Below are positions 2,389-44,999 of a stretch of DNA of 64,000 nt, piece after piece (the stretch's first letter is position 1; each line of letters begins with the position of its first letter). Both the position numbers and the translations under genes were made by a program. Location: positions 1-64,000 of the IMG/VR virus record IMGVR_UViG_3300036770_008700; one strand, given 5' to 3'. The notes beneath the pieces are model-generated. The model ran no database searches, was not told the origin of the DNA, and worked only from the letters and a program-made list of their open reading frames with translations. The stretch comes from a virus.

Positions 2389-4263
2389 ATGACAAACTCA
2401 ATCAAGCCTTCAAGGTTCGTAGGTCTTCACGCTCATAGCACAGTTGGGAGCATTGGAGATGCTATCGGCCTTCCACAAGAGCATATCGATTATGCTATTT
2501 CCAACAACATGGATGCTCTTGCTCTTACCGATCACGGTTCTATGGCTGGAGTATCTCACCAGCAAATCCATGCCAAGAAGCTCAAAGATAAGGGAGTTAA
2601 GTTTAAGTCTATTCCCGGCGTTGAAGCTTATTTCATCGATTCACTTTCTGAGTGGTCAAAGCTTGTTAAGATGCAAAAGGCCAACAAGGTTTTGGCCAAA
2701 GCTCTTGCTAATAATGAAACAATTGGAAATGAGCTAGCTGATACAGAAGCTGACATGGATGCCAAGCATGGCAAAGAAGTTTTGGAAGAGGAAGAAGGTG
2801 GAACTGTTGTAGAAATCGAAGCAGAATCAAAGAACAACAAGTTTTCTGATCCAATTGCTCAACGTAACCATATTGTTCTTCTGCCCAAGAACAATGCTGG
2901 GCTCAAGAGCCTTTTCCAAATGGTATCGGAAAGTTATATCGATGGCTTTTACCGTTATCCTCGCATTGACTTTGATATCCTAAAGCGTCATGCCAAGGGA
3001 AACATCATCGCTAGCTCTGCATGTATTGGTGGCCGTCTTGCAAAGGTTGTGTTTGATAATCAAGATCCTTCTCTTCAATGGAGAACCTGGGAAGTAACAA
3101 ACTATAATTTTGAAAAGATTCAATCTGAGCTTAAGAGCATTACAGATCGATTTGTTGATGCTCTTGGTGCACCAGAGAACTATTACATTGAACTCCAGAT
3201 GAATCGTCTTGTTCCTCAACATTTGGTAAATTATCATCTTATTGAGCTATCAAAGCGAACAGGACTTAAGCTTGTTGTTACCGTAGATTCTCACTATTCT
3301 AATCCTAATCACTGGAAGGAGCGTGAGGTTTACAAGGCTATGGCTTGGGCTTCAAAGACCAAGGGAACCATTGATCCCAACACTCTTCCTCAAACTGTTG
3401 AAGAGCTTAAGTGTGAGCTTTATCCAAAGAATGCCGATCAGCTTTGGAATACCTACCTTGAGCAAAAGGCGGTATATCCAGAACTTTATAACGACGATCA
3501 ACTTATTTGTGATGCTATTGAACGCACCCATGATATTGCTCACCAGCTTATTGGTGACGTTTCTGTTGACCGTTCTGTGAAGCTTCCCGGCATTGGTCGT
3601 CTTATTGAAAAGAATGCCCTAGAAAAGCTTCTAGAGGCTTCTACGGGCATGTCTGAGGATGATGTAGCATTCAAGCAGTTGGTGCAGCTAGCAATTAATG
3701 GTTTGCGTAACGTTGGACGCAATCATGATGATGTTTACATTAAGCGATTGAAGTATGAACTTGATACCATCAAGCATCTTCGCTTTGCAAAATACTTTCT
3801 CACATATCACAAGATTATGGATATTGCTGGAAAGGAAATGCTTATCGGGAATGGTCGTGGTTCTGCTGCTGGCTCGCTGCTATCATATGTTTTGAATATT
3901 ACGCAGGTTGATCCTATTCGTTTTGGTTTGCTATTCGAACGTTTCTTGGTTAAGTCTAAAAAGTGTTTGCTCCCCACTACTTATGTATTGGCACATGATC
4001 ATCGTCTAGTAACACTTAAAGATGTAAAAATGTTAAAAGATTTGGAAGTTGGGGATATGGTGTATACACATACAAAAGCATGGAAACCAGTTGTAAGCAA
4101 AGAAGAAACACTGCATAAAACACTTGTAGAATTTGAACTAGAAGACGGTACTATGCTTACAAGCAGCCCCAACCATCTTTGGATTGTTATTCGTGAAGGA
4201 AAAGAAATAGAGGTTAGGGCCGATGAAATCAGAGAAACCGACGAGTTTATTAAAATGCTGTAA
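2389..4263 (+). CDS. dnaE: DNA polymerase III alpha, N-terminal part (PHP domain) fused to split-intein N-half
   Basis: [27 protein letters not shown] motifs; then CLLPTTYV... intein block A and TSSPNH block B up to the stop. Confidence 0.95.
3964..4260 (+). mobile_element. split intein N-fragment (99 aa)
   Basis: Starts with Cys right after [10 protein letters not shown]; contains LEVGDMV and TSSPNHLW; ends [14 protein letters not shown]. Confidence 0.9.
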
Positions 4264-5185
4264 AAACTGTGGAAATGAGTTTGAGCTAATAATTCCAGAA
4301 AAAAATGGGAGTGGTAGCTCAAACTCACTTAGACGAGTTTTTTGCAATGACAAATGCAAAAATCAGTTTGGTAGGAATAAAGAAGAAGGAAAAGTAAATC
4401 GTATTTGCAAAATATGTGACAAAACTTTTCTTAGCTATCCTTCACAGAAACGCTCTTACTGTTCTAGAAAATGTCAAAATGAAAGTAAAAAAGTAGCACA
4501 CGTTGAAAGAAAGTGTGAATACTGTAATAGTATTTTTGAAGGCAAGCCAAGTGATTTGAATGTGTATTTCTGCTCTAGAGAATGCTTCCATAAAGCCGGA
4601 AGAGAAGTAAAAACTTGCATTACCTGTAAAAAACAGTTTGAAATAAAAAAATCTGATAATCATATTCAACGATGCAGTCGTCAATGTCAGTTCGTTGATC
4701 AGTCGAACGGTAAAATCAAAATACACCTAAATGGCAGAACAGGTTATCGCATTGATTTAGGAATGAAAGATTATTTCAAAAGTGCTCTAGAGGCAGATTA
4801 TGCAAGGTTCCTTGAATATTTTGGGATTCAATACATTTATGAAGGTAAAACGTTCCTAACAGCTATAGGGGCATATACTCCCGACTTCTTCTTGCCAGAA
4901 CTAAACTTATTTGTTGAACTCAAAGGTGTAGAGGATAATGGAAAACCATTCGAAAAAATGATGACAAAGAATCTTTTAAAGCACCAATCGGTACTAGAAC
5001 AAGCCAGCAAAATAATAACAATAACACAAAAAGAGTTTATAGCTGGAATAAAAGCTGCTAATCTATGGTCAACTATTCCCAACCTAGAACAAAGAAACTA
5101 TAAAAAAACAAAAGGATTGGTTGTCACATATGAAGATCAAACAAATCAACAAAGTAAACCTAGCAACTCCAATCAAGCTGGTTGA
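4223..5185 (+). CDS. free-standing homing-type endonuclease: Zn-ribbon repeats plus PD-(D/E)XK domain
   Basis: Repeated CxxC...(F/Y)CSxxC; FKSALEA...YTPDFFL...VELKG; overlaps both dnaE halves. Confidence 0.8.
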
Positions 5186-5258
5186 TATTGGAGTTGAAGG
5201 CGATCACACGTTTTTTGTAAGCGACAAACCAAACGGAAACTTTTTCCTTACACATAAC
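5130..5258 (+). mobile_element. split intein C-fragment (43 aa)
   Basis: Block F (VDIGV..DHTFF) and block G (THN), with Ser as the +1 residue. Confidence 0.9.
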
Positions 5259-7370
5259 TCATTTCCCGACATTGATTCAGATTTTTCTGATCGTGATCGT
5301 GCTGTAAAACTTCTTATTGAGTTCTTCGGCAGCGAGAACGTTATTCCTGTAACCAACTTTGCACAGCTTCAACTTCGTTCTCTTATTAAGGATGTTGCAC
5401 GTTTGCACAATCTTCCATTTGAGACAATCAACGCTGCAACAGGAAAGATTGAGAAAGAAGTGTTGGATGTTGCCAAGCAAGTAGAAGGTTTTGACCGTGG
5501 CACATGGGTATTGACCTTTGAAGCTGCTATGAATGATAGTCCCACATTCCAAGAGCTTATGGAAACTTATCCAGAGTTTCAAACCACCATCAAGGTGCTA
5601 TTCAAGCAAATGCGTGGATTGTCTCGTCACGCTGGAGGAGTGATTATTACCGAGAACAGTCGTGAAGGTATGCCGCTTATCAAAGCTGGTGGTGAGCTAC
5701 AAACACCATGGCCAGAAGGTGTTAACTTTCGTCATCTTGAAGAGTTTGGTTTGCTGAAGTTCGATATTCTTGGACTTGGTACACTCCGTATGTTCGAACA
5801 ATGTGTGCGACGTATTCTGCAAAAGCAGGGCAACAAGCATCCAACTTTCAAACAAATCAAGCAATGGTTTTGGGATAACTTGCATCCAGACAACAATCTT
5901 ATGGATGATAAGAAGGTATACGAGCACGTTTTCTGGAATGGAAACTACACAGGAATCTTTCAGTTTATTAACGACAAAACACAAAACTTCATGCGTCACA
6001 TGAAGCCGAAGTCTGTAACAGATATTGCTGTAGCTACATCTATCTTTCGTCCTGGTCCTCTATCTCTCAAGGTAGATCAACGATTCTTGAATAACCGTTC
6101 TAATCCAGATTCGGTTGTATACAAGCATCCTCTTCTCAAAGAAGTGTTTGCTGAAACTTCTGGATTGCTTGTGTTTCAAGAGCAGCTTCAAATGATTTAT
6201 CACAAGCTCGCTGGTGTTCCTCTAGAGGACACAGACGGTATTCGTAAGGCATTTACCAAGAAGGAAATCAACAATAAGGAAAAGGCACAAGCAGAGCGTA
6301 ACAAGCTACGTCAAAGCTTTATTGATGCTTGCAACAAGGCTAATGGAATTGATGCCAAGGATTGTGGTGACATCTTTGATGAAATGGAAAAGCTTGTCGC
6401 TTATTCGTTCAATAAGTCTCACGCTGTATGCTACGCAATTACTACATGGCAATGCGCTTGGTTTCTAACCTATTATCCAGACGAATGGATTGCTACATAT
6501 ATTGATTATTGTGCAATTTCTAAGGGCAAGGTAACAGGCAAGGAAGATCCAAAGGCTATTGCGATTAAAGAAGCTAAGGCTCTTGGTTATGAGCTAACCA
6601 AGCCAGACATTAACGTGTCTGAATATGAGATTATCTCACATCCTGTTTTTGACAAGACTCTTGTGCCAAGCTTTAGCTCACTCAAGCATGTTGGTAAGAC
6701 TGCGGTTTCTGAGATTCAACAGTTTCGTCCATATAATTCTGTAAATGATTTGCTTGTTAATCCAGATGGTTCATGGAGACACAGCAAGTTTAACAAGAGT
6801 GCGTTGTCAGCGTTGATTAAGCTTGAGGCACTAGGTTCCATGAATATTGTTGGTGAAGGTAAGCTGTTTAAGAACTACAAGCAGGTTCATGCTGTTCTTG
6901 TAGAACGATATGACGAGTTTAAGCGTATTACCTCACGTAAGAAGAATAATGATATTGCTCAACCTCTTGCTGCTGCTATTGCAGAGGTTCAAGGCATGGA
7001 AGACTGGACCAAGGCAGAGAAGATGGAGTTTACCAAGGAGCTTGCTGGGTCTGTTGATTTTGATTTGCTTCTTTCCAAGGAAGCTCGTGAGAAGCTTGAT
7101 GAACTTGGTTTTGAATCTATTGATAACTGGAGTGAGAAGGGAAATTACTGGGCCATCGTGGCTTCTGCTGGTCTAGCTAAAACCAAAACAGGCAAGACTT
7201 ATCTTAAGCTTCGGTTGTTTGCTGAAGCTAACAAGGAAGTAACTTGCTTTATTTGGGGTTGGAGAGGTGAAGTAAACCTTGCGCAAAACGATGTTATTGT
7301 TGGATTGTTTGATAAAAGTGATTTTGGATTTTCTTGTTATCAGAACAAGATTTACAAGATTTCAAGCTAA
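5130..7370 (+). CDS. dnaE: split-intein C-half fused to DNA polymerase III alpha C-terminal part
   Basis: MKIKQI...[12 protein letters not shown]...LTHN followed by SFPDIDSDF, HAGGVII, KFDILGL, FQEQ, YSFNKSHA. Confidence 0.95.
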   Translation: MKIKQINKVNLATPIKLVDIGVEGDHTFFVSDKPNGNFFLTHNSFPDIDSDFSDRDRAVKLLIEFFGSENVIPVTNFAQLQLRSLIKDVARLHNLPFETINAATGKIEKEVLDVAKQVEGFDRGTWVLTFEAAMNDSPTFQELMETYPEFQTTIKVLFKQMRGLSRHAGGVIITENSREGMPLIKAGGELQTPWPEGVNFRHLEEFGLLKFDILGLGTLRMFEQCVRRILQKQGNKHPTFKQIKQWFWDNLHPDNNLMDDKKVYEHVFWNGNYTGIFQFINDKTQNFMRHMKPKSVTDIAVATSIFRPGPLSLKVDQRFLNNRSNPDSVVYKHPLLKEVFAETSGLLVFQEQLQMIYHKLAGVPLEDTDGIRKAFTKKEINNKEKAQAERNKLRQSFIDACNKANGIDAKDCGDIFDEMEKLVAYSFNKSHAVCYAITTWQCAWFLTYYPDEWIATYIDYCAISKGKVTGKEDPKAIAIKEAKALGYELTKPDINVSEYEIISHPVFDKTLVPSFSSLKHVGKTAVSEIQQFRPYNSVNDLLVNPDGSWRHSKFNKSALSALIKLEALGSMNIVGEGKLFKNYKQVHAVLVERYDEFKRITSRKKNNDIAQPLAAAIAEVQGMEDWTKAEKMEFTKELAGSVDFDLLLSKEAREKLDELGFESIDNWSEKGNYWAIVASAGLAKTKTGKTYLKLRLFAEANKEVTCFIWGWRGEVNLAQNDVIVGLFDKSDFGFSCYQNKIYKISS

Positions 7371-7424: not shown

Positions 7425-8762
7425 ATGACCAACCTAATTTCCATTCTTTACGAAATAACCCGATATGAAAGAGAGACAGGAGAAAGTCTTCCTAGCTCGC
7501 AAGAACAAATCATTAAATACGAGGAACAAGGTGGATACTTTATCCATTTTTCTAATGTTCCAAGAATAGGATTATACATTGTAAACAAATACAATACCCC
7601 TATTGGATTTTATGCCTATCCTTTAAATAGAAAGAAGATGGCTGACTTTGCTGTAGACAGACCTTATGCCATTATCTTCAAACCTAAGCCAGAAGCAAAA
7701 ATTTTAGATACTAAGAAGTATGGTGAAGGTGACTACAAGGCAGATGTTGATGAACTTGTTGATATGGGCTATTCTTTAGATGATATCAATGAGGCAGCAA
7801 GAAATGCCAGAAGGCCAAGACCTGCTGGAAAAATCTGGAATGTTACAAGAGTTTTGAGTGGTTCTGATAAAAAAACTGATGATGATTCAGCAACAAGAGG
7901 TGGAGGACCAACAGGTAAATGGTCAATGCTTCTTAAAAAACTTGGTTACGATGGAGTTAATGACGATTGTTTTAGCATCATCCATCCATCCGAGCCTTGT
8001 CAAGCTGTGTTTTTTGATACAGGCAAGCTTGATTTAATCAAAATACTTGACATGAAGGGCACAGGCATAAAATATAAGAGTGACTTATTTGAACCCGAAA
8101 ACCAAGACTTAAAACAAGCAGCTAATTCAAAAACTTCACCGAAACGTTTAGCAATGCTTGCAAAAAGTAAAAACAATCAGGTTCGTAGAAATGTTGCTAA
8201 GAATCCAAACACTTCACCAGAAACTTTGAGAGATTTAGCAAACCCAGAAATAGAAAGCAATGAAGATGTTCGTGAGTATGTATATTCAAATCCAAACTGT
8301 CCACCAGATATTTTAACAGCAGTTGCTGAAAGTTCAGATGGTAGATTAGATACTATTATTGCAGAAAACCCAAACACTCCACCAGAAACGTTAAGAAAGC
8401 TTGCAACAAAAGGACGAGGTGATAATTTTTGGCTTCGTAGAAGTGTTGTTGGTAATGAAAACTGTCCACCAGATATTTTAAGTGACCTTGCAAAAAATGA
8501 CCCCGAATTATTCGTTCGTGTTGTAGCTATATCCAATCCAAGTATTCCAGTAGAAGCATTGGAATTCCTAGCAAATGACACAGAAAAGCAAATTCGTATG
8601 AATGTTGCAAAGAACAATAAAACTCCAAGGGATATTTTGATTAAACTTAGCAAAGACCCATCACATTTCGTTTCAGATGCTGCTGAAAGAACACTTAAAA
8701 ATCTTGGTATTACCGAAGCTTTGATCATGCAAAAAGTATTTAACAAGCTGCTTGGGTATTAA
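7425..8762 (+). CDS. ART-like N-terminal domain plus LRV/HEAT-like repeats; ILYE leader
   Basis: IHFS...GFYAYP...GYDG...EPCQAVFF; repeats VRxxVAxNPNTPPExL; paralogue of 42503..43918. Confidence 0.65.
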   Translation: MTNLISILYEITRYERETGESLPSSQEQIIKYEEQGGYFIHFSNVPRIGLYIVNKYNTPIGFYAYPLNRKKMADFAVDRPYAIIFKPKPEAKILDTKKYGEGDYKADVDELVDMGYSLDDINEAARNARRPRPAGKIWNVTRVLSGSDKKTDDDSATRGGGPTGKWSMLLKKLGYDGVNDDCFSIIHPSEPCQAVFFDTGKLDLIKILDMKGTGIKYKSDLFEPENQDLKQAANSKTSPKRLAMLAKSKNNQVRRNVAKNPNTSPETLRDLANPEIESNEDVREYVYSNPNCPPDILTAVAESSDGRLDTIIAENPNTPPETLRKLATKGRGDNFWLRRSVVGNENCPPDILSDLAKNDPELFVRVVAISNPSIPVEALEFLANDTEKQIRMNVAKNNKTPRDILIKLSKDPSHFVSDAAERTLKNLGITEALIMQKVFNKLLGY

Positions 8763-22138: not shown

Positions 22139-22390
22139 TTATTCTAGTTTTGCTTCTTGGAATGCGTTAGTGTTTAGGTAGACGTTTAGTTCCCATTTGA
22201 TCCATCCAACGATTCCTTTTGGTGTTAGGATTTTTGAGCTACTTTGGTCTAGAGAGTGTTGTAGCAGTACGAATGGGATATTTGGACTGAGTTGATCAAC
22301 AATTTTTTGTTCTTGATTCCACACGATTCTTGTTCGTGAGTTCTGAGGTGTAACATACATTTTACCTACTTTGAGTTCGGAGAGGGTCAT
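22139..22390 (-). CDS. GKLY-family paralogue
   Basis: VGKMY...PFVLL...KILTPKGIVGWI. Confidence 0.75.
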   Translation of the reverse strand: MTLSELKVGKMYVTPQNSRTRIVWNQEQKIVDQLSPNIPFVLLQHSLDQSSSKILTPKGIVGWIKWELNVYLNTNAFQEAKLE

Positions 22391-22728
22391 AGTTTGGTTA
22401 AGTGTATATGTGAGTATTGTGGATGGTTTACCACCATGTATTTTACTTCACCTTCTGATGTTAGGATTTTTAGGATATTGTTATTTAGGTGATTTAGTAC
22501 AACGAAGGTATTATTTGGGTACAAGGGTTTGATGGATGTGTTAGTTGTGTATCCATGTGTTTTGAAGTTGATATCTGTTGCTTTATGCATCATGTTTGCG
22601 GCGATATTTGGGTTTGAGAAGTATGTTAGTATTGCTTGAGCTGCCCGTTCTGGTGTTTCGAACAGCAGCCAAACGTTTTCACTGATTGTTTGGTACAATG
22701 CTCCTGAATCAAAGTTTGATGTATTCAT
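22387..22728 (-). CDS. GKLY-family paralogue
   Basis: GALYQ...TFVVL...KILTSEGEVKY. Confidence 0.75.
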   Translation of the reverse strand: MNTSNFDSGALYQTISENVWLLFETPERAAQAILTYFSNPNIAANMMHKATDINFKTHGYTTNTSIKPLYPNNTFVVLNHLNNNILKILTSEGEVKYMVVNHPQYSHIHLTKL

Positions 22729-23018
22729 TGATTTGCGTTTTTAATGAGTTTGAAAGTAGACTTGTCTAAGATAAGCCATCCAACAACTCCATTTGTTGTT
22801 AGCACTTTAACACAAAAAAGTGGTTGTCGTTTTGGGTGGGAAAAGCTTGTTTTATCTTTATCCAGCACGACAAAAGGTTGCAAGGCTTTGATTGTGTCAA
22901 CAGTGTCAACAAATCCATCATACCAACGATTATCTTTTGGATGGAATTGACGCATATCGAGATCGATTTTACAGGCATACAGTTTGCCTATTTGCAGGTT
23001 TTCTTGTGTTGTAATCAC
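22725..23018 (-). CDS. GKLY-family paralogue
   Basis: IGKLY...PFVVL...KVLTTNGVVGWL. Confidence 0.75.
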   Translation of the reverse strand: MITTQENLQIGKLYACKIDLDMRQFHPKDNRWYDGFVDTVDTIKALQPFVVLDKDKTSFSHPKRQPLFCVKVLTTNGVVGWLILDKSTFKLIKNANQ

Positions 23019-23053: not shown

Positions 23054-23359
23054 CTAAATCTGTGTTTTGTCATAGGAAAACACATAAGGCAAATCACTAT
23101 CTTCAAGTGATAACCAACCTACTTCACCTGTTGTTGTTAGAATTTTTACACGATGGACATGGAACGTAGTTTTCTTGTATTTCCTATAGGCAAATATTAC
23201 AGTATGAAGCTCTAACGGAACAAAAGCAAGATCTGGTGATAGCAGTTTGTTTGTGCTTAGTGTGGCATCAGGTTGTTTTGGATCAACCATATCATACATT
23301 GCCATGTAATGTGGAATATGATATAAGCCGCCGAGTTTGATATCCGAGATATTTTTCAT
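23054..23359 (-). CDS. GKLY-family paralogue
   Basis: LGGLY...AFVPLE...KILTTTGEVGWL. Confidence 0.75.
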   Translation of the reverse strand: MKNISDIKLGGLYHIPHYMAMYDMVDPKQPDATLSTNKLLSPDLAFVPLELHTVIFAYRKYKKTTFHVHRVKILTTTGEVGWLSLEDSDLPYVFSYDKTQI

Positions 23360-23619
23360 GTTATGATTTCCTCAACGGTTTCACCTTCCCAAAAACGAAG
23401 ATAACCAACCAATCCAGTTTCTGTAAGCACTTTTACAAGAAAGGTTTCATGATACGTATCATGACGAATCACGCTACCAAGTGTTACAAAAGGTGATTGT
23501 TCTTCTATGCGGCCTAATAGATATAGTTTCTCCAAAGTCGGCTTTGTTGCGTCAGCGAGCAACGCTTTAGGAATATCGCAGCAGTATATTTTACCAACTT
23601 TTATTTCTTTGGGGTTCAT
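23356..23619 (-). CDS. GKLY-family paralogue
   Basis: VGKIY...PFVTL...KVLTETGLVGYL; start ATG 23619. Confidence 0.75.
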   Translation of the reverse strand: MNPKEIKVGKIYCCDIPKALLADATKPTLEKLYLLGRIEEQSPFVTLGSVIRHDTYHETFLVKVLTETGLVGYLRFWEGETVEEIIT

Positions 23620-23629
23620 TAATACTCTT

Positions 23630-23902
23630 TCACTCTTTAAGTTCTTTGAACCAATGAGTGCCTGTTGTAAAGTATGCCCAACCAACTTGACCTTTACTTG
23701 TTAGAAGTTTGCAATACCAAGTCATCTTATTTGGATCTTGTTCCTTTTCTAATAGAACCAAACATTCCATAGAAACAAGACTTACTCCTTCTGGAGTAAT
23801 AAGAAGCCATATGTCGGTCATAGCTTCATTCATCATACTAAGCCATATACCTTTATAGAGCTTCCCAACTTCTAAATCTTCTGGAGATAAAGGCAATCTC
23901 AT
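23630..23902 (-). CDS. GKLY-family paralogue
   Basis: VGKLY...LVLLE...KLLTSKGQVGWA. Confidence 0.75.
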   Translation of the reverse strand: MRLPLSPEDLEVGKLYKGIWLSMMNEAMTDIWLLITPEGVSLVSMECLVLLEKEQDPNKMTWYCKLLTSKGQVGWAYFTTGTHWFKELKE

Positions 23903-24201
23903 GGTTGTGTTACTTGTTTGAAGCAGTAAGGATAATCAAATAGATCGTAATGAAGTTCTGAGGTCCAACCAATGTTACCAGATGTTGTAAGAAGTTTCAA
24001 GCAAAACTGACTATCATGGATTAGTTTTACTTCCAAGACAACAAACCAATCATTTGGTAAAAGCAATGAACCGTAGGTTGAATGTAGGTGTGCCCGAGCG
24101 TATATGGAATGAGGTTTTTTGAATAGTTCAATCGTGTTCATGCGTTCTTCAACCGTATCGTATAAGCCACCAACTTTTAGTTCATGAATATACGTATACA
24201 T
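23899..24201 (-). CDS. GKLY-family paralogue
   Basis: VGGLY...FVVLE...KLLTTSGNIGWT. Confidence 0.75.
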   Translation of the reverse strand: MYTYIHELKVGGLYDTVEERMNTIELFKKPHSIYARAHLHSTYGSLLLPNDWFVVLEVKLIHDSQFCLKLLTTSGNIGWTSELHYDLFDYPYCFKQVTQP

Positions 24202-24517
24202 GCTTTACTTCCTCAATGCAACCCTTGGTCCATTCAGCGTCTTCTGGATAAAAAATCCAACCAATCTCTCCATTAGTCGTAAGAATCTTGCAAACCTTAT
24301 CCGTCTGTTCCAACAGCATAAACATGCTGTTTGGTTCAATATGAGAAACATTGCAGTTTAATCGATTGCTCCAATAATCAGTCCATCCTTCGGCGGCGCT
24401 CTCGACGACGGCGTAGGGGTTGGTTATGTCTGCGTGGGCGACGGCAGCAACAATATCCTTCGAAGGATAAAGCATCCAAAAGTATTTCTTGAACTGAAAA
24501 AGCTTTCCAATGTTCAT
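24182..24517 (-). CDS. GKLY-family paralogue with NNC-codon variable loop
   Basis: MNIGKLFQFKKYFWMLYPSKD-[loop]-YWS...KILTTNGEIGWI; close to the 40.9-42.1 kb genes. Confidence 0.85.
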   Translation of the reverse strand: MNIGKLFQFKKYFWMLYPSKDIVAAVAHADITNPYAVVESAAEGWTDYWSNRLNCNVSHIEPNSMFMLLEQTDKVCKILTTNGEIGWIFYPEDAEWTKGCIEEVKHVYVYS

Positions 24518-28779: not shown

Positions 28780-29106
28780 TCAAACTTGGATGCTCTCAAC
28801 TTGCTCCCATTCCTGTGTGCTTAAATAAATCGTGCCAATACTGGAATCTTCCAATAAAGCTATGACCCTACAGGAATTCTTTCCACTAAGCAAACTTCCA
28901 TTATGATGTGCTTTGTGCACTTCCAACACAACAATCCTTGAATCTAATGGAAAGTACTTGTAATCAACAACATCAATTTTGTAATACCTGTCATACCTGT
29001 CGAAAGAGATGTAGTGCACAAGATAACCTTTTTCGCCTGCTAGCCGATTATTTTGGATAGTTTTTTTTGCAGCGGCTGTTAAACCATACATCTTTCCAAC
29101 CATCAT
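28780..29106 (-). CDS. GKLY-family paralogue
   Basis: VGKMY...IVVLEV...ALLEDSSIGTI. Confidence 0.7.
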   Translation of the reverse strand: MMVGKMYGLTAAAKKTIQNNRLAGEKGYLVHYISFDRYDRYYKIDVVDYKYFPLDSRIVVLEVHKAHHNGSLLSGKNSCRVIALLEDSSIGTIYLSTQEWEQVESIQV

Positions 29107-29417
29107 AGCTTACTCAACCTAACAACATTATCATAAGACCAAGGAGCGTGGTATGCATACCTAATCCAACCAATACCTCCAGAACTTAAAACCTTTACAA
29201 CTCTTTCTTCAACATCCAAAGGAACAAATAAATCGTCTGGCAAAAGAATTGAAATATTCGTGCCATAATAGTTTTTCAACTGTTTTGCTATGTGATTTGC
29301 ACTTTCTAAGTCATCATGATATGTGCCTGCCTTAGTACCATTGGCACATGCTAGCTTTTTGTCCTCATAACACAACCAATAATGAGTTTTAAATTTGTAA
29401 AGTTTTCCTACTTGCAT
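29103..29417 (-). CDS. GKLY-family paralogue
   Basis: VGKLYKFKTHYW...FVPLD...KVLSSGGIGWI. Confidence 0.75.
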   Translation of the reverse strand: MQVGKLYKFKTHYWLCYEDKKLACANGTKAGTYHDDLESANHIAKQLKNYYGTNISILLPDDLFVPLDVEERVVKVLSSGGIGWIRYAYHAPWSYDNVVRLSKL

Positions 29418-29692
29418 ACAATTTCCTCAAAATATGGAAAACACCAGTCGTGATATGCAATCCAACCAATATCTCCATTTGGCAGCAGAACTTCTTTGCA
29501 AAGATTTCCCTCCTTAAGCAACACAACTACATCATTTGGTTTAAGATAGCTTGTGTGTGCGTTGAATTCCTTGGTCATCAAAGTAGATTCATAAACTGAA
29601 TAAGCACTAGGAGCAACCATTGCCATATGCCTATCAGGAAACACATACCAATAATGTCTCTTCACAGAATATAGCTTTCCAATGTTATCCAT
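29408..29692 (-). CDS. GKLY-family paralogue
   Basis: IGKLYSVKRHYW...VVLL...VLLPNGDIGWI. Confidence 0.75.
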   Translation of the reverse strand: MDNIGKLYSVKRHYWYVFPDRHMAMVAPSAYSVYESTLMTKEFNAHTSYLKPNDVVVLLKEGNLCKEVLLPNGDIGWIAYHDWCFPYFEEIVCK

Positions 29693-39738: not shown

Positions 39739-40299
39739 TTATTTTATCCCGTCAAGTCTCTTTCCTCCAACGACAACCACCCATGCATCACAAGCATCTT
39801 TCATTTCCGAGTTAAAAACTTCTTGATTGGCACTTTTACCTGTTTTTGCCACATGTTTTTTCCAAGGAAATTCTGGATGTAGTGCTGTGATAAAATCAAA
39901 CACTTTCTCTTTAACGGGACGTTTATCGGCTTTGTTATTCTTAAACCCTACAGCTTTTCTAGCAGAAGTTACGTTAACATCAACAACTTCTGCATTAAAA
40001 GCTTTATGGGAAAGATAGGAAATGATTCCATTAAATTTTGATAAGACTGCAAGTGTATCTGCGCTGCTAAAACCCTTACTAAACATCTTAGCATTAGCTT
40101 CAACATAGATACGTTCTACTTTTTTATCACCAACTAGTTTCTTTATCTCTTCAATACCTCTATCTGCTTTGTCCCACATAGTATGTAGTGTGCTGGAAGT
40201 CAATTTTACAGCATCAAATACAACAACTTGTTCATTTTCATCAACCAAACAAACTCCAGTGCAACTCGTGCTGATATCAAGTCCTAAGAAATATTTCAT
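39739..40299 (-). CDS. ruvC: RuvC-like Holliday junction resolvase
   Basis: LGLDISTSCTG, IYVE, ARKAVG, KEKV, DACDA; start ATG 40299. Confidence 0.85.
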   Translation of the reverse strand: MKYFLGLDISTSCTGVCLVDENEQVVVFDAVKLTSSTLHTMWDKADRGIEEIKKLVGDKKVERIYVEANAKMFSKGFSSADTLAVLSKFNGIISYLSHKAFNAEVVDVNVTSARKAVGFKNNKADKRPVKEKVFDFITALHPEFPWKKHVAKTGKSANQEVFNSEMKDACDAWVVVVGGKRLDGIK

Positions 40300-40325
40300 A
40301 TTGATTCCTTTAACATCCCAAACAA

Positions 40326-40841
40326 TCATTCGTCATAAACCTCGCAACCATAAAGACGCCTAATCTTGTCAACTGATTGCTTTGGAATCTTGCACGTATA
40401 ACTTACTTGATAGCAATCTTTGTTTGAAGCAGCTAAAACTACATGGTCTTTCCATGTTGGCTTCATGTTAAGAAACTCAACACCTAGTTGCTGTTGAAAC
40501 AACTCAACAACAGCATTTACCCAGCCCCAGCCGGTTTTAAATGCCATTTGCTTGCCTCGTGGAATATTAATGTTTAGTCGTTGTGTTTTGTAACCAGCAA
40601 TGGTTTCATTCGACCATACAGCTTCATTCAAAGCAATCCAATCATTATTCGAGGTACGTGAGTATGCAGCCGCAAAATCCTTGAGACGACGACCTACTTG
40701 AACATAACATTGTTCTGGCAAAGCATCTACTAATGCTTTTCTTTGCTCGGTCATTGCTTGCTCAAGTGTTGAGTAAAAGTTAACTGTAGTGATTGCTTTG
40801 TCTTTATTGCCAACAAGCATGTAATACGATTTTTGAATCAT
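40326..40841 (-). CDS. hypothetical protein
   Basis: AGGAG RBS; 171 aa. Confidence 0.65.
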   Translation of the reverse strand: MIQKSYYMLVGNKDKAITTVNFYSTLEQAMTEQRKALVDALPEQCYVQVGRRLKDFAAAYSRTSNNDWIALNEAVWSNETIAGYKTQRLNINIPRGKQMAFKTGWGWVNAVVELFQQQLGVEFLNMKPTWKDHVVLAASNKDCYQVSYTCKIPKQSVDKIRRLYGCEVYDE

Positions 40842-40882
40842 AATGGTGACTCCTTACGCTAAGTTATCACACACGTTTTTCT

Positions 40883-41185
40883 TTATAAACCAATATCAAA
40901 ACATTCATTATCACACCAATCATCAGGAACAAAAATCCATCCAAGCTGTCCATTGTTTGAAAGAACTTTTAAACAATTTCTATCTCGCTCAATCAAACAG
41001 AATATACTCTTTGGTTCAAGATAAGAAACGTTGCAGTTTAAATGAAATGAATAATATTTGGCTGCATCGCTGGTGTCTCGAAGACTACATCGTCGAATAG
41101 CAATGCTGCTGTGTAGGATACTATCTTTTGAAGGATACAACAACCAAAAGTATTCCTTGATTTGATAAAGCTTTCCAACATTCAT
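40883..41185 (-). CDS. GKLY-family tandem copy 4 (variable loop)
   Basis: MNVGKLYQIKEYFWLLYPSKD...YYS...KVLSNNGQLGWI. Confidence 0.85.
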   Translation of the reverse strand: MNVGKLYQIKEYFWLLYPSKDSILHSSIAIRRCSLRDTSDAAKYYSFHLNCNVSYLEPKSIFCLIERDRNCLKVLSNNGQLGWIFVPDDWCDNECFDIGL

Positions 41186-41475
41186 TGGTTTACTTCCTCA
41201 ATATAGTTCTTGTCCTTGTAAAAATCAGAAAGATAAATCCAACCAAGCTCACCATTAGTTGAAAGGATTTTACAGAACTTACCATCTTGCTCCAAAAAAC
41301 AGAAAATGCTTTTTGGAGAAATATATGAAACGTTGCAGTTATATTCCTTGCTATAATAAGCGGCGGCGGAGGCGGTGGTGTCGAGGGAGGCGAAGAGGAA
41401 GGCGTCAGCAATATCCTTTGAAGGATAAAGTAACCAAAAATACTTCTTGACTTGATAAAGCTTTCCGATGTTCAT
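41182..41475 (-). CDS. GKLY-family tandem copy 3 (15 consecutive NNC codons)
   Basis: MNIGKLYQVKKYFWLLYPSKD...YYS...KILSTNGELGWI. Confidence 0.85.
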   Translation of the reverse strand: MNIGKLYQVKKYFWLLYPSKDIADAFLFASLDTTASAAAYYSKEYNCNVSYISPKSIFCFLEQDGKFCKILSTNGELGWIYLSDFYKDKNYIEEVNQ

Positions 41476-41768
41476 TGATTTACTTCCTCAATATCGGCTT
41501 TGCACCAATCAGCAAGATTAATCCAACCAAGTTCTCCATTAGTTGAAAGAATCTTGCAACAATACCCATCTTGTTCCAAGAGCATAAAAATGCTGTTTGG
41601 AAAAATATATGAAACGTTGCAGTTGAAACGCTTGCTATAATAATCAGCGCCCTCTACGGCTTCGGTGAAGGAGGCTCCAGCAACAGCGGGGTAGGTGGCG
41701 ACTTCATCCTTTGAAGGAAAAAGAAACCAAAAGTATTTCTTGGCTTGATAAAGCTTTCCAACATTCAT
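41472..41768 (-). CDS. GKLY-family tandem copy 2 (variable loop)
   Basis: Same frame as copies 1, 3 and 4; different loop. Confidence 0.85.
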   Translation of the reverse strand: MNVGKLYQAKKYFWFLFPSKDEVATYPAVAGASFTEAVEGADYYSKRFNCNVSYIFPNSIFMLLEQDGYCCKILSTNGELGWINLADWCKADIEEVNQ

Positions 41769-42061
41769 TGATTTACTTCCTCAATGCAACCCTTTGCCCA
41801 ATCTTTATTTTTTGGATAAATGATCCAACCAAGTTCTCCGTTGGTTGAAAGAATCTTGCAAAATCGTCCATCTTGTTCCAAAAAACAGAAAATGCTTTTT
41901 GGAGAAATGTATGAAATATTGCATTTGAAATACGTGCTCCAATAATCAGCAACAGCGGCGGTGGCGGCGGCGGCCAGATCGTCTTCGGCGGCAGCAATCT
42001 CCTTTGAAGGAAAAAGGAGCCAAAAATACTCCTTGACTTGATAAAGCTTTCCAACATTCAT
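41765..42061 (-). CDS. GKLY-family tandem copy 1 (variable loop)
   Basis: ATG 42061 follows a TG-TATACT leaderless promoter. Confidence 0.85.
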   Translation of the reverse strand: MNVGKLYQVKEYFWLLFPSKEIAAAEDDLAAAATAAVADYWSTYFKCNISYISPKSIFCFLEQDGRFCKILSTNGELGWIIYPKNKDWAKGCIEEVNQ

Positions 42062-42098
42062 GAATCCAGTATACCACATGGAAAAATGAATATAACGG

Positions 42099-42530
42099 TT
42101 ATTTTTTCGCTTCTAAAAGCTTTGTAAATCCTTCAATAACAGCGTCACTCCAAAATTGATACTCATAATCCTCTAACTTATTCTCTTTTAACCACTTCCT
42201 CGTTGCCGTAGCCTTGGCAATAACTTTTCTGTCAGTCAACTTGTCGGCACGCTTGACTTCCACAATAACCTTTTTACCGGTTTTATACAGAACCAAGAAG
42301 TCAGGAGTATAGTTTCTATACCTGCCAGCTATTGCATACCGGATAATAATGCTCTCATATTCGTAAGAAAGCACATCTGGATTCTGATCTAGATAGAGTG
42401 CAACCGTGTATTCCCAACCTGATCTATATTTTATTGGTGTTGGACATTTAGGAGAATAATGTGTCCCAGTTATGTAATGCTTTTTACGCTTGCGTCGCTT
42501 TTTTACAGTTTTCTTTTTATCAGTTTCCAC
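42099..42530 (-). CDS. TnsA-N / T4 gp4-like head-completion endonuclease
   Basis: YRSGWE...YEYE...YTPDFLV...VEVK. Confidence 0.75.
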   Translation of the reverse strand: METDKKKTVKKRRKRKKHYITGTHYSPKCPTPIKYRSGWEYTVALYLDQNPDVLSYEYESIIIRYAIAGRYRNYTPDFLVLYKTGKKVIVEVKRADKLTDRKVIAKATATRKWLKENKLEDYEYQFWSDAVIEGFTKLLEAKK

Positions 42531-43918
42531 AATACCTTTTCCATTACCAATGCTTGAGTCATTTCTTGTAACCCAGATAAACGCTGAAAAGCAGAACGAC
42601 GAACAAAGTTGTCTGAATCTTTTGCCAGTTTCTCTAAAATATCCCGAGGAACTTTGGGATTGTCTGCAACAGCTTCCCGTGTTAAAGGGTCTGTAGAATC
42701 ATCAGCAAGATACCTTAAAACTTCCTGTGGTGTGTTTCGATTTCCTGCAACCGCTATTCGAACCACCGGTTGCTTCGCTAACTCAGCTAAAACATCGCCT
42801 GGAGTGTCTTCATTTCGTGCAACAGCAGATCGTACAGTCTCTGCTGGGTCTTTTGAAAAAGTTGTTAAAACCTCTGGTGTAACGTTTAAATGGTTAACCG
42901 CCAGAATACGAATAGTTGTATTCTCAAGGTCGTCTAACTTTGCTAGACTTGCCAAAACTTTTGGCGTTGCTGAGTTGTTGTTTACAACAGCCATTCGAAC
43001 ATTAAAATCTCTATCGTTAGCAAGAGCCACTAATAAATCTTCTGGAGATTTCTTATTCTTTGCCAGAAGCACACGAACACTATCTGTGTCAAATAAAAGC
43101 GACTTCAAAACTTCTGGTGGAGCGTTTTCATTCCCTGCAACAACTTTTCTAATCTTCCAATCAGAATCCTGTGCAAGACTCGCTAACAACTTCGGTGAAG
43201 AAGTTTTTGCAAGCGTAATCTTCCTTTGATAATCTCTTTCCTCTGTGTCAAATAATTGATCAACATCTTTTATGTTGCTACTTTTAAGTTCAATCACTTT
43301 TACTAAATCAAGCTTGCTTGTATCAAAAAATACTGCTTGACAAGGCTCTGAATCATGAATAATAGAAAGGCAATCGTCGTTAACTCCATCATAGCCAAGC
43401 TTCTTGAAAAGAATTGACCATTTACCTGTTGCGCCGCCACCTCTTGCCACTGAATCATCATCAGTTTTTTTGTCAGAACCACTCAAAAGTCTTGTAACAT
43501 TCCAGATTTTTCCAGCAGGAGTTTTTCTTTTAGCTTTTGAAGCTGCTTTCTCAATCACTTCTAACGAGTTGCCCATGTCAACAAGCTTGGCAATGTCTGC
43601 TTTGTAGTCACTCTCACTATACTTCTTAATCTCTAGAATATTAGCTTCTGGTTTAGGCTTAAAGATAATAGCATAAGGTCTATCAATCGCAAAACTTTCC
43701 ATCTTATCTCTATCTAAAGGATATGCGTAAAATCCAATAGGAGTGTTGTACTTGTTAACAATGTATAACCCTATTCTTGGAACATTAGAAAAGTGAATGA
43801 AATATCCACCTTGTTCCTCGTATTTAACAAGCTCTTCTTGCCAACGAGGAAAATTTTCTCCTATCTCTTCTTTGTATCTGGTTATTTCGGATAAACGAAT
43901 GGTTTTTCTCTTGGTCAT
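42503..43918 (-). CDS. ART-like N-terminal domain plus LRV/HEAT-like repeats
   Basis: N-terminal ~200 aa nearly identical to 7425..8762; VRxxVAxNxNTPxEVL repeats. Confidence 0.65.
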   Translation of the reverse strand: MTKRKTIRLSEITRYKEEIGENFPRWQEELVKYEEQGGYFIHFSNVPRIGLYIVNKYNTPIGFYAYPLDRDKMESFAIDRPYAIIFKPKPEANILEIKKYSESDYKADIAKLVDMGNSLEVIEKAASKAKRKTPAGKIWNVTRLLSGSDKKTDDDSVARGGGATGKWSILFKKLGYDGVNDDCLSIIHDSEPCQAVFFDTSKLDLVKVIELKSSNIKDVDQLFDTEERDYQRKITLAKTSSPKLLASLAQDSDWKIRKVVAGNENAPPEVLKSLLFDTDSVRVLLAKNKKSPEDLLVALANDRDFNVRMAVVNNNSATPKVLASLAKLDDLENTTIRILAVNHLNVTPEVLTTFSKDPAETVRSAVARNEDTPGDVLAELAKQPVVRIAVAGNRNTPQEVLRYLADDSTDPLTREAVADNPKVPRDILEKLAKDSDNFVRRSAFQRLSGLQEMTQALVMEKVLWKLIKRKL

Positions 43919-44015: not shown

Positions 44016-44999
44016 TTACAGTATATTCATCTCTTCTAACGTTTGTTTTGTTAGCAGTTTATAAGCATCGATCCCATTTGCTCGACAATACTCTTCGGCT
44101 GCTAACTGCTTTTGCTTAACTTTTTCAGATTCTGAATAAGCTGCTGGCTTGATTTCCCAAAGTTCTTTCCGTCCATCGGTATATTCAATCAGAAAATCTG
44201 GAATATATCGTCGAGCATGTTCTCTGTTTCCTTCGTTTAGTTTGTAGCAGATCACGAACGGTTCATATGTAAACGTTCTAACTGTCAGTTCTTTATCCAA
44301 CCATTCAACTACTGCTTTTTCCCAAGATGACCGATAAAAGACTTCGTTGCCCAATTTTTCAGAAAAAACGTGTCCATTTTTGTGGAAGTTTTTCCCATAG
44401 GCTTGACGCTTTCCTGCAACCATTTCTGAAGAAACAATCTCTGACATTTTTTGTCTAGTCTCTAGTGAATGGTTTTTGCCGTACATCGGATTTCTCTCTC
44501 CACTGAAACAAGCTGTATCTTTATGATGTTTTGAGATTTTTTCTTTTGCTTCCTTTGTATGATGTTTACCAAACATAGGATGTTTCGTTTTGTCTTTCAG
44601 TCTCTCAGTCATAGAAGCACTAAGTTTTCCTTTTACTTCATCGTCCATTCGTGCATTATTAGGAATCAAACCTTCTCTAATCGCCGCACCACGACAAGGT
44701 TTGCTACAAAAATGATGTACGAACTTAGCGATCTGATTTTTCCATTGCAAAACCAACTTTTTGCAATAAAAACATTCAATTTCTGCTTTTCTGGGAGAGG
44801 GCTTATAACTTTTTTCCATAACTCTTCGATGTGCATATGCACATTCAAGTTTACAATAATGATTTTTGTTCTTTAGTTGCTTGTATTCCAGCTTTTTTGG
44901 AGTAAAAACAGTGTGGCAAAAATCACACTCGAAAACAACAATTCGTCGCTTTTGTTTTGGTTTACCAACAACGGCTTCCATCTTGTCTTCTATTATCAT
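44016..44999 (-). CDS. homing-type endonuclease: Zn ribbons, NUMOD3 motifs, TnsA-like PD-(D/E)XK domain
   Basis: HPMFGKHHT, NPMYGKNHS; YRSSWE...YIPDFLI...WEIKP. Confidence 0.8.
   Translation of the reverse strand: MIIEDKMEAVVGKPKQKRRIVVFECDFCHTVFTPKKLEYKQLKNKNHYCKLECAYAHRRVMEKSYKPSPRKAEIECFYCKKLVLQWKNQIAKFVHHFCSKPCRGAAIREGLIPNNARMDDEVKGKLSASMTERLKDKTKHPMFGKHHTKEAKEKISKHHKDTACFSGERNPMYGKNHSLETRQKMSEIVSSEMVAGKRQAYGKNFHKNGHVFSEKLGNEVFYRSSWEKAVVEWLDKELTVRTFTYEPFVICYKLNEGNREHARRYIPDFLIEYTDGRKELWEIKPAAYSESEKVKQKQLAAEEYCRANGIDAYKLLTKQTLEEMNIL

Follow-up and report, generated by a model that had tools for sequence, protein, structure and literature searches.

Background

Simple sequence repeat (SSR) contingency loci and unstable CGG/CCG triplets are short tracts, rich in guanine and cytosine (GC), that lie within genes, shift in length by slippage or unequal recombination and differ between close strains. 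The mycobacterial PE_PGRS genes form a set of many paralogs in which a conserved domain is joined to a repetitive GC-rich part of variable length that undergoes recombination. In diversity-generating retroelements (DGRs), variable codons that are rich in NNC and free of stops are the hallmark, and AAY codons in the template are described in PMC7826257 as giving varied chemistry without stops. In this article we analyse a family of small phage genes that recalls all three, found in the IMG/VR virus record IMGVR_UViG_3300036770_008700, a record of 122,895 bases with 38% GC and a CheckV completeness of 33%, of which the first 64 kb (64,000 nucleotides) constitute our window. As the initial annotation of the window had stated, four genes of this family lie in tandem and a fifth at 24182-24517. 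All are on the minus strand. The five encoded proteins have 97-111 residues and near-alike frameworks (mean column identity 64%), and they differ in an insert, hereafter the loop, between PSK(D/E) and Y(Y/W)S.

The codons of these loops end predominantly in C. We conclude, with a probability that we put at roughly 0.55, that each loop is a decayed in-frame alanine tract of GCC (or, in a sister type, GCG) codons, whose evolution proceeds through unequal recombination, slippage and point changes, probably under diversifying selection.

Results

Codon signal in the loops

Reading out the codons confirms 15 consecutive C-ending codons at 41362-41406 in the gene at 41182-41475. The other counts that had been reported also check, with C-ending codons numbering 15 of 18 in the gene at 24182-24517, 11 of 18 in that at 41472-41768 and 9 of 12 in that at 41765-42061, and the loop of the gene at 40883-41185 is indeed eroded. 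Across the whole record C occupies 15.9% of third positions (31,626 codons in long open reading frames, ORFs), and by our own arithmetic 15 such codons in succession would arise with a probability of about 1e-12 per start; chance is thus excluded for this run, which is the longest among the 492 ORFs of at least 50 amino acids in the 123-kb record, the runner-up being 7 codons. Windows of 45 nucleotides with at least 68% GC occur eight times in the whole record, and four of the eight are these loops.

The family extends well beyond this phage. A profile of the five proteins matched 347 proteins at E <=0.001 in a collection clustered at 90% and 358 representatives in a library of 1.84 billion proteins, and no match from either collection carried a Pfam domain or an informative name. 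All of the 120 matches listed share the same anatomy, a conserved framework with a loop of variable length rich in alanine, threonine, aspartate and valine. We compared 4 viral and 28 metagenome loci (numbered with the prefix L), in which, together with the record, a hidden Markov model (HMM) of the family finds 115 ORFs; an alignment search with the C-terminal module added only three loci. Tandem arrays reach nine copies on one contig (L010). Codon statistics were taken from the 79 distinct genes that score at least 90 bits, from about 30 metagenome contigs. The loops span 16-45 codons in 78 of the 79, the exception being a natural copy without a loop (L008|522-752), in which PSKDV is followed directly by SKYFNC and the framework is otherwise intact.

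In these 79 genes the third position is C in 54.7% and G in 11.9% of 1,983 loop codons, as against 15% C in 5,877 framework codons, a comparison that the initial annotation had proposed. The consensus loop codon is GCC (G at position 1 in 52%, C at position 2 in 51%, C at position 3 in 55%), and abundance drops with distance from it: GCC occurs 381 times, the nine codons one step away 10-122 times each, and all codons three steps away 168 times in total. Codon preference is reversed between loop and framework for every amino acid. For example, CTC and CTT are used 44 and 5 times in loops and 33 and 287 times in frameworks, GAC and GAT 66 and 24 times in loops and 34 and 232 times in frameworks, and CCC makes up 50 of 77 proline codons in loops and 4 of 150 in frameworks. 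Two internal controls are available within the same genome, namely the conserved alanines at the loop edges, which use GCT as does the rest of the genome, and other alanine-rich tracts, which use GCA. The loops of some paralogs have decayed to a genome-like composition, with C at the third position in 3 of 26 and 5 of 24 codons.

A sister type with G-ending loops

A sister subfamily was found in a related 260-kb phage record, of which 17 kb around locus L004 were examined. In 19 distinct loops of this type the third position is G in 68% of 338 codons, as against 18% in their frameworks, and the top codon is GCG. The amino acid repertoire tracks the fixed letter, with tryptophan, arginine, methionine, lysine and glutamine up in the G type and histidine, aspartate, isoleucine, phenylalanine and threonine up in the C type. 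By our own derivation, the two types correspond to one double-stranded CCG/CGG-like tract, read on either strand in the register that gives alanine. The presence of both types on one strand of one genome (Table 1) excludes as causes the supply of host tRNAs, a strand asymmetry across the whole genome and the capture of host DNA with a high GC content. Host codon use and high-GC capture also fail on the depletion of G-ending codons in C-type loops (GCG 10 versus GCC 381; CTG 8 versus CTC 44). The window contains no tRNA genes.

Divergence of the loops

The tract diverges much faster than its framework. Where frameworks are at least 98% identical in amino acid sequence the mean loop identity is 0.83, where they are 95-98% identical it is 0.73, and below 85% it is saturated at about 0.41; genes with frameworks less than 88% identical have no alignable loop. 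The changes are largely structural, consisting of length change, duplications, pairs of compensating frameshifts and recombination. Tandem repeats within loops include a 12-nucleotide unit present four times in L014|2809 and, elsewhere, units of 21 and of 24 nucleotides present twice each, and GCC runs reach about five codons, longer units being repeated 2-4 times in a tract that is otherwise decayed. The proteins P0016 and P0084 have identical frameworks and loops of 20 and 35 residues, the 15 extra residues having arisen by duplication, and many other gene pairs with frameworks at least 95% identical differ in loop length. All 114 pairs of N-terminal and C-terminal modules are nevertheless joined in a single reading frame without a stop across the loop, and on/off switching by frameshift is accordingly absent from these 114 genes.

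Point changes were seen among the closest relatives. Related contigs carry three lone differences in 4,326 otherwise identical nucleotides, and all three fall in loops, which make up 684 of these nucleotides (p of about 0.004 by our own arithmetic); all are transversions at codon position 1 or 2.

The loop as a recombination joint

The loop separates N-terminal and C-terminal modules that recombine independently. Among all pairs of the 79 genes, 18 are mosaic, with one flank at least 97% identical in nucleotide sequence and the other less than 90% identical (often 55-65%), and only 3 pairs have both flanks at least 97% identical. In the mosaic pairs the shared side extends a few codons into the loop, often through a GCC run, and then ends. 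In the clearly chimeric gene L014|1575, whose join lies inside the loop, the N module and the first 36 loop nucleotides equal those of L010|646, and the last 22 loop nucleotides and the C module equal those of L010|2295; in our comparison of the two maps the L010 genes between 646 and 2295 have no counterpart at that place in L014.

Copy number varies between phages as well. Between conserved TnsA-like and RuvC-like flanking genes there are 2 copies in L015, where both flanks lie on the contig, and 4 in the window, and L006 has at least 6, its downstream flank lying outside the fetched locus. The window itself is present in 20 of 24 listed public sequencing runs (11 studies), and the list includes no RNA run that contains it. 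In assembled contigs from four other runs the flanks are about 99% identical and the match breaks within the array, where the alignment skips and returns over gene-sized stretches and segments the size of a loop are replaced, all on short array contigs on which orthologues and paralogs are not assignable.

The YPSKD codons, which lie right at the loop's 5' edge, make up an inverted repeat of 6+6 nucleotides (41414-41427, 24456-24469 and other paralogs), which is perfect in the gene at 24182-24517. As a required recognition site this palindrome can be rejected, because it is confined to the PSK clade and the PTK clade is equally locked to C without it.

Predicted protein fold

For the 41182-41475 protein, AlphaFold2 gave, from 113 sequences, a model with a predicted local distance difference test (pLDDT) score of 85.6, in which two N-terminal strands are followed by the insert (two helices, pLDDT 73-78), then by four strands and, after a short helix, by one last strand. 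The top VIA-align matches are SH3b domains (2evr_A with Z 7.8, a root-mean-square deviation of 2.1 and 67 residues aligned; 4krt_B with Z 6.9), and the best structural matches belong to the bacterial SH3 domains found in cell-wall enzymes and in phage endolysins. The best Foldseek rows are likewise SH3 domains (E 0.025), and the Atlas rows carry SH3_3. The protein thus models as an SH3b-like five-strand barrel. In our own reading of the model, made without an alignment, the insert appears to occupy the position of the SH3 RT loop, between the first hairpin and the next strand.

Distant relatives that appear to share the barrel (HMM scores of 25-77 bits, or alignment only) and have no GC-rich insert are encoded at 23356-24201, 22387-23018, 29103-29692 and G000 100632-101212. 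In another protein, P0203 (1,011 residues), 15 separate stretches match positions 42-66 of the family profile, and P0203 may be a repeat protein made from part of the barrel.

Genomic context

The coordinates of the loop genes and their neighbours are collected in Table 1. Homologues of the TnsA-like nuclease with 87-90% identity adjoin the array upstream in L015, L002 and L006, and in L005, L013 and L015 the arrays are followed downstream by relatives of the RuvC-like gene (63-79% identity); the product of the latter gene we take to be RuvC-like from reading it rather than from a domain scan. We treat both genes as context only. No similar phage was detected when 40300-42600 was compared by blastn with 50,697 deposited phage records, and a search of viral contigs for strains, using the flanking protein of 171 residues, likewise returned zero relatives. 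A non-exhaustive literature search found no paper on this family or on a wobble-locked loop.

Table 1. Loop genes of the window, their flanking genes and the arrays of the related 260-kb phage
Feature	Position	Strand	Details
Paralog g1	40883..41185	-	100 aa; insert ~41054-41122, eroded, 8/23 codons C-ending
Paralog g2	41182..41475	-	97 aa; insert ~41356-41412; 15-codon C-ending run 41362-41406
Paralog g3	41472..41768	-	98 aa; insert ~41640-41705; 11/22 loop codons C-ending
Paralog g4	41765..42061	-	98 aa from ATG 42061 (upstream ATG 42079 also open); insert ~41942-41998
Dispersed paralog g5	24182..24517	-	111 aa; insert ~24374-24454; 15/27 loop codons C-ending
TnsA-like / phage endonuclease I-like nuclease gene	42099..42530	-	directly upstream of array; Pfam PF08722, E 2.8e-13
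RuvC-like resolvase gene (presumed)	39739..40329	-	downstream of array; flank conserved in relatives
Twelve NNG-type genes	L036 2115-10689 (G001:C1:110114-118688)		G-ending loops, third-position G up to 20/27
Four NNC-type genes	L036 13338-14666		same strand as the NNG-type genes, 3 kb downstream of them

Several other features of the window involve related sequences. An ORF of 327 residues at 44016-44999 contains a distant paralog of the TnsA-like nuclease, with 31.5% identity over 111 residues, a protein with LRV/HEAT repeats at 42503-43918 has a 52%-identical paralog at 7425-8762, and a short minus-strand ORF at 38576-38728 matches the final 35 residues of the RuvC-like protein with 48.6% identity. 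Two ORFs match a single DNA polymerase PHROG, that at 2389-4263 in its N-terminal part (profile 37-436) and that at 5121-7370 in its C-terminal part (441-1040), and an ORF of 320 residues at 4223-5185 stands between them, so that the polymerase gene looks split or interrupted.

Discussion

Proposed origin of the loop diversity

We propose that the genes encode small stand-alone SH3b-like barrels of an uncultured large freshwater phage, and that each barrel probably carries at the RT loop an alanine-rich, partly helical insert of 17-45 residues. The insert would be encoded by a decayed in-frame triplet tract of the CCG/CGG type, mostly GCC and in the sister subfamily GCG, both of which specify alanine. 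The comparisons above show that in-frame changes of length, tandem duplications, compensated frameshifts and single substitutions all alter the tract, and that the N and C modules of tandem paralogs are recombined at it, giving chimeric genes and changes in copy number. Unequal recombination and slippage may continually renew the GC-rich tract, which would explain why the third letter of the founder is kept in an AT-rich genome, and selection on a putative binding loop may favour amino acid change at positions 1 and 2. The diversity would then be evolutionary, arising among paralogs and strains rather than being made anew in each infection, and would involve neither a reverse transcriptase nor a template.

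Several observations weigh against this explanation. Some concern the third-position lock, which it accounts for only partly. The initial annotation had stated that positions 1 and 2 vary while the third stays C; of the 67 informative loops, which are phylogenetically non-independent, 52 have their fewest changes at position 3, and the contrast is modest, with 46%, 47% and 35% of 1,487 core codons differing from GCC at positions 1, 2 and 3, respectively. Even so, the lock goes beyond what a neutrally decaying repeat would give, which is equality or the reverse, and is much stronger in the G type, where GCG itself makes up only 55 of 338 codons although 68% of them end in G. In the C type, C still ends 566 of 1,073 codons other than GCC. 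Because duplication alone cannot reset third positions once they have decayed, some bias or selection must be assumed in addition; possible causes of the lock are selection for amino acid change, preferential expansion of GC-rich units and a constraint at the nucleotide level.

Other points concern the individual processes and the fold. Identical neighbouring codons number 169, as against 149.6 in shuffles (z 2.09; reached by 24 of 1,000 shuffles), which is a weak signature of single-codon slippage. Eight same-length gene pairs with at most 3 loop differences have 10 changes in 624 loop nucleotides and 9 in 163 fourfold sites of the framework, a hand sum over a biased sample from which 8 same-length pairs with at least 13 differences were dropped, and these figures make no case for point hypermutation of the loop. 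The loop may also be a barrier at which conversion tracts stop, instead of a hot spot. Finally, the scores of the fold matches are middling by the tool's own note, and Pfam SH3_3 was found only below its gathering cut-off of 27, with 13.1 and 12.2 bits in two of seven proteins of the family that were scanned, namely those of the five genes with loops and of two distant paralogs.

Alternative explanations

The best of the alternatives, which we nevertheless regard as unlikely, is that the loop is a neutral low-complexity linker, an unconstrained surface loop in which a microsatellite-like tract drifts and whose diversity is non-adaptive. The framework of the natural copy without a loop is intact, compensated frameshifts are tolerated, several paralogs have eroded loops, and by our own count the loop substitutions of close pairs comprise 8 nonsynonymous and 2 synonymous changes, a ratio that fits neutrality. 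However, all 114 genes keep the loop in frame and 78 of 79 retain 16-45 codons, fewer changes fall at position 3 than at positions 1 and 2, which would not be expected under neutrality, many phages maintain large tandem arrays, and the insert probably lies where SH3 domains bind their ligands.

Next in order, and doubtful in our judgement, is a process at the nucleotide level by which every third letter of the G-rich strand is kept, either through a strand-specific repair or mutation bias at structure-forming (GGN)n or through nuclease-initiated recombination directed at the tract, rather than through selection on the protein. By our own derivation the fixed letter is the same DNA position in both orientations, namely the leading G of GGC in the G-rich strand, and residues that require the other wobble letter are depleted in each type (tryptophan 0.7% in C-type versus 5.6% in G-type loops, histidine 3.2% versus 0.6%). 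This process would also suit the three lone differences described above, although their enrichment in loops is non-significant against fourfold sites alone, and the conserved TnsA-like neighbour of one clade, although that gene is absent from the fetched flanks of the other clade and the evidence links the loops to no enzyme. Since any inversion that preserves alanine coding places wobble on wobble, the two orientations can separate neither this process from selection nor the causes of the lock from one another. The loops that have decayed to a genome-like third position count against it too.

The initial annotation had suggested, as one of two possibilities, a (GCC)n-based mutator or slippage mechanism that produces a library of binders. 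Much of its outline stands, including the GCC consensus, the tandem duplications, the in-frame changes of length, the joints between modules and the SH3-like scaffold, whereas a dedicated mutator and binding itself are unsupported. In its fullest form this would be a dedicated system that respects the codon register and needs no reverse transcriptase, in which a recombination nuclease encoded by the phage (for example, the conserved TnsA-like neighbour) or repair induced by (GGN)n structures would break and rejoin the tract again and again among the tandem paralogs, so rewriting positions 1 and 2 with the third letter retained and giving the population a repertoire of binders on an SH3 scaffold directed at variable targets in the host, and we consider such a system improbable.

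The other possibility suggested was remote retrohoming from a DGR, in which an (AAC)n-like template in phage or host would be copied into each loop with errors at adenines, giving NNC. The stop-free NNC-rich codons fit the hallmark, as set out in PMC7826257, and the amino acid repertoire follows the fixed third letter. The search that the initial annotation had called for, for a reverse transcriptase, Avd and an AAC-rich template, was carried out for the two proteins on the 123-kb record and three related records, including that of 260 kb, and for the template on the 123-kb record. Neither RVT_1 (PF00078), for which the search controls were positive, nor the Avd family (PF05635) had a match in any of the four, all of which are incomplete (CheckV 33% for the source record, 70% for the 260-kb relative, 24% and 13%). 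Within the 123-kb record, blastn-short with the five loops and 45-nucleotide flanks matched only the frameworks of the paralogs, and the best AAC/AAT-rich tract had at most 6 such codons in 12. Since the four records are fragments, the absence of a reverse transcriptase and a template is unproven, and we keep the reading at very long odds. Loops within one array differ in both length and sequence, so that each would need its own template. Near-identical strains, alike across kilobases, differ at single loop sites (G/C, G/T, A/C) with no wholesale re-randomisation, and some loops are identical between contigs whose frameworks differ. Indels, duplications and frameshift pairs are not DGR products, an NNG library would yield TAG stops, and the predicted fold is SH3-like rather than a C-type lectin.

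Three further candidates were rejected. An overlapping gene is contradicted by a mean of 3.0-7.2 stops per gene in the alternative frames (the best, one antisense frame, is free of stops in 2 of 79 genes); translational bypass or insertion of a GC cluster, by the 114 of 114 loops that are in frame and without stops; and RNA structure as a general feature, by loops with 30-nucleotide flanks that fold no better than shuffles (z 0.94, -0.44, 0.30, 1.34 and -1.96).

Significance and comparison with known systems

Hypervariable patches rich in NNC are commonly taken as DGR footprints. The same footprint can arise without a retroelement, and genome scans for DGR targets therefore need tests for a template and a reverse transcriptase. 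A scaffold of about 70 residues, SH3-like in the model, with one triplet-tract loop that keeps its reading frame through length change and recombination, is also a compact natural design, of which a related phage carries at least 12 copies within 9 kb. If the loops do bind host proteins, such arrays would add a new class of repertoire to the phage arms race. The third-letter lock, on C or on G within a single genome, is a testable puzzle in the evolution of repeat tracts.

Among described systems, DGRs of the BPP-1 Mtd type resemble the present genes in having a short, stop-free, NNC-rich hypervariable stretch in the conserved frame of a phage gene, often in several paralogs. They differ in that here no reverse transcriptase, Avd or template was found in the records searched, changes are not restricted to adenine-templated sites, length varies, a G-ending version exists, and the variable part is the central loop of an SH3-like fold and not a C-terminal C-type lectin. 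SH3 and SH3b domains, and the engineered Fynomers with randomised RT and n-Src loops (PDB 4afz is among the Foldseek rows), share with our model the small beta-barrel, its topology and a variable segment at the RT loop; in the phage proteins the sequence score is under the cut-off, the insert is long and partly helical, and its assignment to the RT loop comes from reading the model. The PE_PGRS genes differ from the present genes, which belong to an AT-rich genome, carry a codon-phased segment of 50-135 nucleotides and encode phage early-region proteins of about 100 residues. As in SSR contingency loci and unstable triplets, the length of the tract differs between close strains; unlike in those systems, the tract is heavily decayed, the reading frame is kept in every gene with no on/off switching, and the tract serves to join the modules of paralogs.

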